A stretch of DNA of 31,103 bases, from assembly GCA_038208905.1 (NCBI GenBank), contig JBBQYG010000032.1, positions 1 through 31,103 of the forward strand, given 5' to 3'. The notes below the pieces were generated by a model. That model was not told where the DNA came from. It was given only the letters and a program-made list of their open reading frames with translations, and made no database searches. Below, piece by piece: positions 28,219-31,103 of this stretch (the first letter of the stretch is position 1; the number at the start of each line of letters is the position of its first letter). The position numbers were made by a program, and so were the translations under genes. This DNA is from Candidatus Sumerlaeia bacterium (GTDB lineage Bacteria > Sumerlaeota > Sumerlaeia > SLMS01).

Positions 28219-28594
28219 CAGGCATTGATCCTTGCATAGGCCCGCCGCGCCGGGGCGGAGAGGTGGATGGCCAACCCAACTGGCCGGAATTCGACCGCCG
28301 AATTGAGGGAGGCGGCGGCGGGCGGTGCAAGGGGATTGCGGAACGGCAGCGGGCCGGCAGGGATGAGTGCGGCGGGGTGAGGCCTGAACGGCAAAGGTGG
28401 CATTTTGCCATTCGTGGTTGAGCCTCACGAATGAAGGTATGCGTGAGAGGTCCGCGATTTCCTGCAAGCCCCTGTCGGGGAACTCTTCGCAGTTTTTCAT
28501 CGTTTTCCCTTGCCAAGCGGGGGGGGGAAAAAGGTACGCCAATGATGTTGTCCTTAGTGGATCAACTCAGACCTTGCAAGGAGCACGATCCCTC

Positions 28595-28849
28595 ATGAAT
28601 CACCTGCTTTGCGCCGCCGCCGTTGGGCTTTTCGCCCTCGCCGCCGCGCCCATATTCGCCCTGAGTGGCAGCGGTGATTCAGAACCCTTCATTCTGGACA
28701 CTCGGACCAACCAACCCAACTCCGGATTCGCCGATTCCACTCCTTTCGTTCTCGACACCCGCTCGGCACCGCTCAACTCCGGCTTCGCGGACTCCACTCC
28801 GTTCGTCCTCGACACACGAACCTCCATTAACGCTTGGGTATTTCGCTAA
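28595..28849 (+). CDS. 84-aa secreted protein with three DSxPFxLDTR repeats
   Basis: AAGGAG RBS; signal peptide MNHLLCAAAVGLFALAAAPIFA; repeats 2 and 3 (28718-28762, 28775-28819) differ only at synonymous positions, which supports coding. Confidence 0.85.
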   Translation: MNHLLCAAAVGLFALAAAPIFALSGSGDSEPFILDTRTNQPNSGFADSTPFVLDTRSAPLNSGFADSTPFVLDTRTSINAWVFR

Positions 28850-28885: not shown

Positions 28886-30277
28886 ATGATGAAAAATATC
28901 CTCCTGACTGCCTTCCTCGTCGCCTCCCTCGTGGCGCCCGCGCTCATGTCGGCCCAGCCCGTGGTCGGCAATATCACCGCCAGCCAGCGCTCCTCCGGCG
29001 ACAGGGCCGTGGACATCTCCTACGACCTCTCGAACGGTAACGGTGCGATGACTGTCACTGTCCTTGTCTCCAACGACAACGGCGCTACGTTCTCCATCAC
29101 ACCGCAGGCTCAGTACCTCACGGGTGACATCGGCGCCGGAATCAACAACGGCACCGGTTATTCCATCGTGTGGGATGCGGTGACGGACGTGCCGGAGACT
29201 TTCTGGCCCCAGACCCGCATTCGCATCATCGCAACGGAAGAAGGCACTGGGCCCGGCACCGTTGCCCTCGCGATCTCGAGCAACGTCACCGCTCCCGTTC
29301 ATCAGTCCGCCGCCCAGACGCTCACTTTCACTTTCGCGCAGTCCGTCACCGGCTTCGACGCCTCCGACGTGACCGTGACGGGTGCCACCAAGGGTGCCTT
29401 CTCCGGTTCGGGCGCCGCCTATACGCTAGGCATCACGGGCACGGGAGGCACCATTTCCGTATCTGTACCCGAAAGCGCAACCAACCCGGGCAACCTCGCC
29501 TCCACCTTCTCCAACTTCTACCAGGACACCTGGACGGTGACGCTCCCCGGCGCGGTGCCGATGGAACTGATCCGCATCCCGGCGGGGACGTTCACCATGG
29601 GCTCGCCGGTGACGGAACTCTCGCGCGACGACACCGAAACCGAGCACACGGTCACGCTCTCGCAGGACTTCTACCTCGGCAAGACGGAGGTGACACAGCA
29701 GCAGTGGCAGGCGGTGCGCGGCTCGTGGCCGGGCACCGCGCCCTCGGCGGGCAACGGCCTCGGGAATGCCTTCCCCGCCTATAACGTATCACACAATGAC
29801 ATCCAGTCATTCATGGCGGACCTCGACACGGCGATCACGGAGCCGGGCACGTTCGCCCTGCCAACGGAATCGCAGTGGGAGTACGCGGCGCGCGCGGGAA
29901 CGACGACGCGGTTCAACTTCGGCGACGGCTTCGGCGCCGATGAATTCTGCTCCGCGGAGGCCGAGCGGACGAACAACATGTGGTACTGCGGGAACAACTC
30001 GCCGAGCGGCACGAAGGCCGTGGGCCAGAAGCCGGCCAACGCTTGGGGGCTGCGCGACATGCACGGAAACGTTTGGGAATGGTGCGCCGATTGGTTCGGA
30101 CCGTACCCTGGAACCGTCACCGATCCCACGGGGCCTGTGAGTGGTTCGATCCGCGTGATTCGCGGCGGCAGCTGGTACAGCAGCGCCCAGTACTGCCGGT
30201 CGGCCTTTCGTATCTACATCGACCCGTCGTTCCGGTACGACAGCGTCGGGTTCCGCGTTCTTTCTCCAGTCCAGTGA
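28886..30277 (+). CDS. Secreted FGE-sulfatase (SUMF1/CLec-fold) domain protein with N-terminal Ig-like domains; probable DGR variable protein
   Basis: Signal peptide; beta-rich N-terminal domains; MELIRIPAGTFTMGS, TEVTQQQW, LPTESQWEYAARAG, NAWGLRDMHGNVWEWC, RVIRGGSW...GFRV. Confidence 0.92.
   Translation: MMKNILLTAFLVASLVAPALMSAQPVVGNITASQRSSGDRAVDISYDLSNGNGAMTVTVLVSNDNGATFSITPQAQYLTGDIGAGINNGTGYSIVWDAVTDVPETFWPQTRIRIIATEEGTGPGTVALAISSNVTAPVHQSAAQTLTFTFAQSVTGFDASDVTVTGATKGAFSGSGAAYTLGITGTGGTISVSVPESATNPGNLASTFSNFYQDTWTVTLPGAVPMELIRIPAGTFTMGSPVTELSRDDTETEHTVTLSQDFYLGKTEVTQQQWQAVRGSWPGTAPSAGNGLGNAFPAYNVSHNDIQSFMADLDTAITEPGTFALPTESQWEYAARAGTTTRFNFGDGFGADEFCSAEAERTNNMWYCGNNSPSGTKAVGQKPANAWGLRDMHGNVWEWCADWFGPYPGTVTDPTGPVSGSIRVIRGGSWYSSAQYCRSAFRIYIDPSFRYDSVGFRVLSPVQ
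30149..30259 (+). other. Putative DGR variable region (VR)
   Basis: Invariant RGGSW/CRSA/GFR scaffold interleaved with NNY codons (ATC, ATT, TAC, AGC, AGC, TAC, TTT, ATC, TAC, ATC, GAC, TTC, TAC, GAC, AGC, GTC), all derivable from AAY by changing only adenines. Confidence 0.65.
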
Positions 30278-30399
30278 CGTGGGCCAAGCAGCGCAGGCCG
30301 GGCGGGTGCTGCGTGCCGACGGTCAGGAGGTCGAGCGGAGCGAGAGCATGCACCCACCCGAGCCGAAGCGACCGCGAGCACAGTGCAGTTGCTGAAGGG

Positions 30400-30425
30400 G
30401 TTTGGGGGGCGCAAGCCCCCCAAAC
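30400..30425. other. Perfect 11-bp hairpin with GCAA loop (candidate DGR target-recognition hairpin and/or terminator)
   Basis: GTTTGGGGGGC-GCAA-GCCCCCCAAAC followed by TTTAT. Confidence 0.7.
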
Positions 30426-30450
30426 TTTATAAGAACTGCTGGAAGCCTCG

Positions 30451-30603
30451 GTGCAGTTCCGCATTTTCTCCATCCCCGCAACGGGTTCTCCCGATCTGGA
30501 GGAGGAACTGAATCTGTTCCTGCGGTCGCACCGCGTTGTGACGGCGCAGAAGACATTGCAGGCTGTGGAGGGGGTGCTGCGCGGCTCTCCCTTCCTCGGG
30601 TAA
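30451..30603 (+). pseudogene. Truncated N-terminus of an HRDC-type DGR accessory protein
   Basis: Not in the ORF track. GTG-started MQFRIFSIPATGSPDLEEELNLFLRSHRVVTAQKTLQAVEGVLRGSPFLG*; the EEELNxFLRSHRV pattern matches my recollection of DGR-associated HRDC proteins, but the HRDC domain itself is absent. Confidence 0.7.
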
Positions 30604-30711
30604 GCTTCAGCAGGTTGTGGGCGAGGATCGCGAGGCTGGCCTGCTCGCGGAAGCTTACGCTACCCATGCCCTGACTGTACAACTGTACGGGCGCCGTTGA
30701 TCCCTCAGGCC

Positions 30712-31103
30712 TCATCCCTGGCCTTCCTCCCTGCCCGGCAGCACCGCCTTGTCATGCGCCGTCAACTCCCGCCGCCCCTTGCAGACGGGCCAGCAGGTGC
30801 AGCCCCAGAAGCGGCGTTTGCGCTTGGGGGTTTTGAGGACCGTGGCGGCGCCGCATCGGGGGCATTGGGGCGGGGTGGCTGTGGGGGTGGCGTTGAGGAG
30901 GGCGTTTGCGAGCCAGCCGGTGCTTGGGGGGGCGGTGGCTCGGGCTTTGGCGAGGAGGGTTTGGAGTTTGTCGCCGTCGATGAGGGCGATGTCGCGCTCG
31001 CGGGCGAGGTCGAGGCATTCGGGGTCGAAGGATTCGGTGGAGAGGAAGTAGGCGCACTTCGCGCGGTCTCGGCGGAGCTCGTCGGCAAACTCGCGAAGGA
31101 TGG
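30712..31103 (-). CDS. 3' part of an Mrr-like restriction endonuclease domain protein with topoisomerase-type C4 zinc finger
   Basis: Not in the ORF track. Open frame from 31101: ILREFADELRRDRAKCAYFLSTESFDPECLDLARERDIALIDGDKLQTLL...PQCPRCGAATVLK...RFWGCTCWPVCKG...GQG*. Confidence 0.75.
   Translation of the reverse strand, partial: ILREFADELRRDRAKCAYFLSTESFDPECLDLARERDIALIDGDKLQTLLAKARATAPPSTGWLANALLNATPTATPPQCPRCGAATVLKTPKRKRRFWGCTCWPVCKGRRELTAHDKAVLPGREEGQG

Follow-up and report, generated by a model that had tools for sequence, protein, structure and literature searches.

A DGR variable region in a lectin-fold protein

Our analysis confirms that positions 30143-30247 of the window, which is the whole of contig C32 (31,103 nucleotides) of a Sumerlaeia draft genome (G000; 301 contigs, 4.24 Mb, estimated 93.9% complete), are a genuine hypervariable region written by a DGR. 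It lies in a predicted secreted protein of lectin fold; two further targets of this kind are found elsewhere in the genome. We consider it quite probable that the three are remote targets, active or recently active, diversified in trans by a cassette outside the bin. The initial annotation had proposed that an FGE-type CLec protein contains a DGR variable region and had found neither TR nor RT in the window; the three-copy and allele data given below support the proposal. The peptide on which the proposal was built is indeed coded at 30149-30259 in the ORF 28886..30277 (+). The features that concern the target itself are as follows.

28886..30277, + strand: DGR target gene, an ORF of 463 aa with a signal-like N-terminus, an Ig-like region and a C-terminal FGE-sulfatase/C-type-lectin domain.
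30143..30247, + strand: variable region (VR) with 17 variable codons; the first variable base is 30149, the last 30245, and variation is confined to codon positions 1 and 2.
30246..30273, + strand: invariant 3' end of the repeat (IMH-like), the same in all seven VR alleles despite its adenines; the TR-like contig described below is homologous up to about 30273.

The N-terminus of the target is hydrophobic and could be a signal peptide. It is followed by an Ig-like stretch whose Big_12 score (26.8 bits) is slightly below the cut-off of 27, and by a Pfam FGE-sulfatase domain at residues 227-459 (E 6.8e-45). The best match among solved structures is 2y3c_A, the Treponema denticola variable protein 1 (TvpA; E 6.8e-30), in an alignment that continues through the VR. 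The VR would thus be placed by its sequence in the C-terminal part of an FGE-subtype C-type-lectin domain, and TvpA likewise has its VR at the C-terminus of such a domain. FGE-type CLec proteins are reported as the largest category of targets in the survey of Wu et al. (PMC5758913). The findings at this locus stay within the described frame of DGRs, and TvpA is the closest known case.

The genes around the target (metK, metH, a T2SSE ATPase, a CDF transporter and a PLD-type enzyme) are housekeeping genes, which places it in ordinary chromosome and not in a prophage. Directly 5' of it, at 28397-28849 (+), is an ORF with a signal-like N-terminus and repeated peptide units of the ADSTPFVLDTR type, in which Tandem Repeats Finder gives just a weak 10-nt repeat (28751-28774). 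At the other end of the contig, the gene at 30712-31101 (-) is truncated by the contig end; it matches the Mrr_cat domain of restriction endonucleases (23.7 bits) and, below cut-off, a zinc ribbon of the Top1 type (25.6 bits). Its continuation past the end of C32 is seen in a metagenome locus, L042.

Three copies of one scaffold

A DNA search with 30100-30300 revealed two further copies of the VR scaffold in the draft genome, at C193:6672-6853 (84% identity) and C3:36268-36449 (82%); blastn with word size 7 gave no fourth. From GGT TCG (30143) to 12 nt beyond the stop codon, the three copies are identical except at 28 columns. Over these 44 codons, the variable columns are distributed as 15, 13 and 0 among the first, second and third codon positions. 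Two controls were used for comparison: the best-conserved block of 15 codons directly upstream of the VR has 2/2/4 by codon position, and three tandem paralogs of a complete relative genome (G033) have 17/16/10 in 46 codons. The VR signal is far beyond chance. The 16 codons that the initial annotation had singled out are exactly those that vary between copies, to which a 17th has to be added: TCG at 30227-30229, with T or A at its first base.

The three targets differ in their N-terminal architecture. The one on C193 is a putative lipoprotein of 309 aa, with a lipobox-like N-terminus and an FGE domain only. The one on C3, at 34096-36426 (locus L053 597-2927), is an ORF of up to 776 aa that joins a KAP_NTPase domain (E 2.2e-34) to an FGE-sulfatase domain. 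Judging from its domains, this fusion of a KAP-family P-loop NTPase to a diversified CLec could be a cytoplasmic sensor like those of conflict systems. In multicellular bacteria, remote loci are reported to be diversified in trans, with NTPase-CLec targets, KAP among them (PMC10907252). In DGRs of the Thiohalocapsa PB-PSB1 type, STAND and some KAP NTPases fused to FGE/CLec are described as proposed antigen sensors (PMC10907252), and the C3 target is alike.

Alleles in other populations

An exact 22-mer of the invariant 3' end was searched against collections of metagenome, genome and viral contigs. The metagenome contigs yielded four loci (L041, L042, L043 and L044), all of them VRs; there were no matches in genome contigs or viral contigs, and no TR in any of the three collections. 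L041 and L042 are C32-like, L043 is C3-like, and L044 resembles the C193 locus. Flank identity is 96-99% for L042 and L043, the latter being 99.3% identical to C3 across 11,812 nt downstream. With the VR included, identity is 92.5% for L041 and, over 546 nt, 84.6% between L044 and the C193 locus. Each of the four loci bears its own VR allele, with the changes in the same columns. C32 and L042 differ at 20 positions of the 105-nt VR (11/9/0 for first, second and third codon positions) and at 18 of the other 951 aligned columns.

We compared seven alleles, the three from the draft genome and those of L041-L044, leaving out the rearranged 5' part of L043. They differ at 32 columns between 30149 and 30245, none of them at a third codon position, and adenine is seen at 28. 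The columns without A among the VR alleles are 30219, 30230, 30231 and 30165, the last being a lone G>C in L041 and the sole exception to adenine-type variation. At the 31 DGR-type columns, the six distinct alleles fill 182 cells with A 76, T 61, G 38 and C 7 times. Immediately 3' of the VR, 30246-30289 is unchanged in all seven alleles, and the adenines there never vary. The Logan contigs are blind to within-sample heterogeneity, and the allele data therefore speak only of diversification since the divergence of the strains.

In sequencing runs X2 and X4, the listed contigs end at the borders of the VR (29950-30148; 30259/30260-30443) and cover it little or not at all. Breaks in assembly at a hypervariable stretch would give such a pattern, and we do not count absent cover in contig data as evidence. 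In the first ~200 nt of L043, which is read on the reverse strand, the VR has an extra 66 nt; the repeat occurs twice, first as a diverged copy and then as one whose start is equivalent to window position 30176. This insertion may be an aberrant 5' integration of cDNA.

The metagenome loci also bear on whether the three copies might be collapsed or chimeric repeats produced by assembly or binning. A MAG of 301 contigs, in which C193 ends 173 nt past its VR gene, leaves some room for such an artefact. Against it, each copy has a long unique context, with C32 beside metK and metH and C3 internal to a contig of 66.7 kb, and each locus recurs in independent metagenome contigs. We regard an artefact as extremely improbable.

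A TR-like contig in the probable source run

Of 22 sequencing runs listed, one (X1) contains all the sampled words and is the probable source run. The Logan contigs of X1-X4 were aligned to 29950-30450 at 80% likeness. Record 8 of X1 is a contig of 204 nt whose gapless alignment to 30184-30273 has 14 differences; differences are listed only away from the alignment ends, which for this record means 8 of the 14. The listable columns where C32 has a base other than A are 30215, 30219, 30227, 30230, 30231, 30236, 30239 and 30243. The contig has A at all eight of these predicted sites, at that record's depth; three of them (30219, 30230 and 30231) lack A in every VR allele. The chance that a VR allele carries A at each of the eight is about 0.42^8, or roughly 0.001. 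Over the whole aligned span 13 differences are predicted versus 14 counted, which leaves one unaccounted for.

The 3' flank of this contig is different as well. It leaves VR homology at 30273, just before the stop codon, and its remaining 112 nt align nowhere in the stretch; by contrast, all seven VR alleles run on identically to 30289 and then into a common module. Most likely, the contig represents the 3' portion of the TR. Contig and window stem from one sample, so that the contig is not independent support. The TR sequence predicted in the initial annotation agrees with it at the checkable sites, save for codon 30227-30229, which has A in the template in place of the predicted T.

These data also weigh on an explanation that dispenses with a retroelement altogether, in which gene conversion homogenises the three CLec ends and loop residues change under diversifying selection. 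This could account for the identical scaffolds and for the common downstream module. It leaves unexplained the NNY form of every variable codon and the lack of third-position change, the presence of A at 28 of 32 variable columns with C in only 7 of 182 cells, and the existence of a contig with A at every listable site. We find it very improbable.

The cassette is missing from the assembly

Neither a TR nor a DGR-type RT nor an Avd was found in the 4.24-Mb, 93.9%-complete assembly. The absence of TR and RT that had been pointed out for the window, i.e., for the whole of C32, thus extends to the rest of the 301 contigs. The single PF00078 match in the genome is a group II intron RT/maturase (TIGR04416, 349.5 bits versus a cut-off of 300) at C289 976-2322 (+), locus L009, on a contig of 2.6 kb; its flanks contain, as judged by eye, transposase-like fragments. 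There were no matches to bAvd (PF22296), and in tblastn searches with the RT and Avd of a related genome (G007, see below) the best E values were 1.1 and 0.99.

Searches for the TR in the draft genome, by a BLAST-type DNA search and by blastn-short with word size 7, returned just the three VRs. The next-best match, on C135 (62 nt at 71%), was rejected as a TR since it is an ordinary match at the level of FGE paralogs. Scanning for at least nine AAY codons per 40 gave 18 windows, of which 17 were translated and none was CLec-like. The short-word blastn against the whole genome that had been suggested as a way to find a TR beside an RT thus turned up two further VRs and no TR. The cassette is absent from the assembly, and with it the proof that a TR beside an RT would have given. 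The assembly contains no N, and all its contigs have at least 1,500 nt, so that a short contig bounded by repeats would have been lost. The cassette is missing from the draft genome and probably present in the sample: it would belong to the source community, left unassembled or unbinned, and the RT would be found beside the TR-like contig.

These results have practical consequences. A DGR target can be recognized from the codon signature of its VR alone, even when the cassette is absent from the draft genome. Cassette-centered tools would overlook all three targets in this MAG.

Relatives and the possibility of fossil variable regions

The VR query found matches in 8 of 61 genomes, the draft genome included. 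No closer scaffold and no cognate TR were found in the 61 genomes or in 25 genomes of the order. One relative of the same family (G007) encodes a complete canonical DGR on contig C271 (locus L040 1853-6096), in the order target-avd-RT-TR. Its target is a protein of 816 aa with Peptidase_C14 (caspase) and FGE-sulfatase domains, its Avd matches bAvd with 62.5 bits, and its RT of 351 aa matches RVT_1 with 67.9 bits. The RT has an IGSLTSQ stretch, which we take to be a hallmark of DGR RTs. Within the repeat, all 14 mismatches between TR and VR fall on TR adenines. Our targets resemble this DGR in being of the FGE type and in having the RV.RGGSW...GFRV scaffold class, the adenine-only TR/VR differences being those of G007 itself. 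Unlike what is expected of the cognate cassette, its TR is ~71-76% identical to the C32 VR, its C-terminal tail is different and it has no module, so it is not the cassette that we seek.

Other relatives have the ends without the machinery. The VR-like ends of G013, G016, G003 and G033 have synonymous differences, and RVT_1 had no match in the first three. These ends look older or fossil, because of the synonymous differences and the lack of a TR. In G033, three tandem small CLec genes with VR-like ends (C1:5022573-5024599, locus L032) have 10 third-position differences in 46 codons, and the last of them is followed by the conserved downstream module. This genome is complete, and a search for the TR found six copies, none of them TR-like. 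From their sequences, these tandem genes look like fossil DGR targets.

The relatives raise the question of whether the three VRs of the draft genome could be fossils too. In this scenario a DGR wrote all three and its cassette later disappeared, leaving frozen VRs that change only through ordinary mutation. The absence of the cassette from the assembly would fit, as would the occurrence in relatives of VR-like CLec ends that have synonymous differences and no cognate TR, even in the complete G033. Against it, the assembly omits contigs below 1,500 nt and is 6% incomplete. We favor targets diversified in trans over fossils for three reasons. First, the three loci share one scaffold without a synonymous difference (0 third-position differences in 44 codons, versus 10 in 46 for the fossil-like paralogs of G033). 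Second, contigs from other samples differ at the same VR columns, so that strains with flanks 96-99% identical, those of L042 and L043, have different VR alleles that vary only at adenine-derived columns. Third, the probable source run contains the TR-like contig, with A at every listable site and a different 3' flank. Fossil VRs are, in our view, improbable. The initial annotation had left the choice between a frozen product and a remote target in trans; the second is now favored, and the alleles, the shared scaffold and the TR-like contig speak against the first.

Probable diversification in trans of three unlinked genes

How would the three targets be diversified in trans? A TR with adenines at 31 positions would give rise to a transcript, which an error-prone DGR RT would copy into cDNA, misreading the template adenines. 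This cDNA would replace the VR, anchored by the invariant 3' end at 30246-30273, and the downstream module would probably aid homing. One TR would serve three unlinked genes: the secreted Ig-like/CLec protein (C32), the CLec-only putative lipoprotein (C193) and the KAP-NTPase/CLec protein (C3). All three would be remote targets diversified in trans, since the same TR would service genes that are unlinked.

Remote targets have precedents. Non-adjacent or remote DGR targets are documented, with seven reported for the Treponema DGR (PMC5758913). There, as we propose here, one TR serves several unlinked genes. Our case differs in that no target is seen beside a cassette, and the cassette itself is unseen. 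It also differs in having three N-terminal architectures (Ig-like, CLec-only putative lipoprotein and KAP NTPase) and a conserved non-coding module of ~90 nt behind each VR. [quoted passage not shown] The draft genome may thus add a case in which a single template acts on three kinds of protein at once: a surface protein, a putative lipoprotein and a putative sensor of the KAP-NTPase/CLec type.

A conserved module downstream of the variable regions

Two features follow the target gene.

30278..30375, + strand: conserved non-coding module, with a GGGCCAAG box at 30281-30289, a length-variable spacer and an inverted repeat (30296-30364) whose loop is conserved.
30400..30425, + strand: GC-rich hairpin with an 11-bp stem and a 4-nt loop, located by folding and alignment at the end of the module.

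The module (~90 nt) is present after all three VRs of the draft genome and in the metagenome contigs, and also behind one VR-like end each in G016, G013, G007 and G033. Its layout is constant: the GGGCCAAG box directly 3' of the stop codon, a spacer with 0-31 extra nt, and the inverted repeat. When searched on its own (86 nt), it gave three matches in the draft genome, all at VR loci, and one in each of the four relatives at the same places, besides three weak short matches (E 4.5e-4 to 9.4e-4). The TR-like contig departs from homology before the module. The predicted DNA fold has -37.9 kcal/mol (z -2.06), a value matched by 3 of 200 shuffled sequences, and covariation is weak (term 0.08; a compensatory change in 2 of 21 predicted pairs). 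We rejected the view of the module as an established secondary structure, for which the z of -2.06 and the covariation of 0.08 are insufficient.

The compact hairpin is found in C32, L041, L042 and L044 and is indistinct in C3. An Rfam search of 29900-31103 gave four matches at E <=1, none near its gathering score; the match to RT-13 near the hairpin (22.3 bits versus a gathering score of 69.1, E 0.16) was treated as chance.

In phage BPP-1, homing is reported to require the IMH together with a short GC hairpin located immediately beyond the point where TR and VR cease to be homologous (PMC3240598). Our locus is similar in the invariant 3' end of the VR, with its never-mutated adenines, and in the inverted repeats beyond the end of homology. 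The BPP-1-type hairpins are described as having stems of 7-10 bp and loops of 4 nt, at 4-34 bp from the VR (PMC3240598). Unlike these, the nearest inverted repeat here (30296-30364) encloses a sequence-conserved loop of ~40 nt, and the compact 11-bp hairpin lies ~125 nt beyond the end of homology; the roles of both are putative.

By analogy with BPP-1, the module is a candidate target-recognition element that may act in homing. It is the sole element here that might turn out to be new. A bolder reading, which we hold only tentatively and think doubtful, is that this lineage runs its DGR wholly in trans. One unlinked cassette, perhaps on a separate or hard-to-assemble element, would rewrite three architecturally unrelated proteins, and the targets would be marked by the module, with its box and its inverted repeat with a conserved loop, instead of the short GC hairpin of the phage type. 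The module would then be a portable "diversify here" tag, since it is found directly after the ends of VR-type genes in relatives of other families.

Finally, a small ORF of 54 aa lies beyond the hairpin at 30441-30602 (+). We dropped it as an accessory gene because Pfam, NCBIfam and PHROGs assign it to no family and it has neither a longer homolog nor an Atlas match; it may be the remnant of a gene. A piece of it, GSPDLEEEL, recurs 3' of a VR-like gene end on contig C23 of G013.
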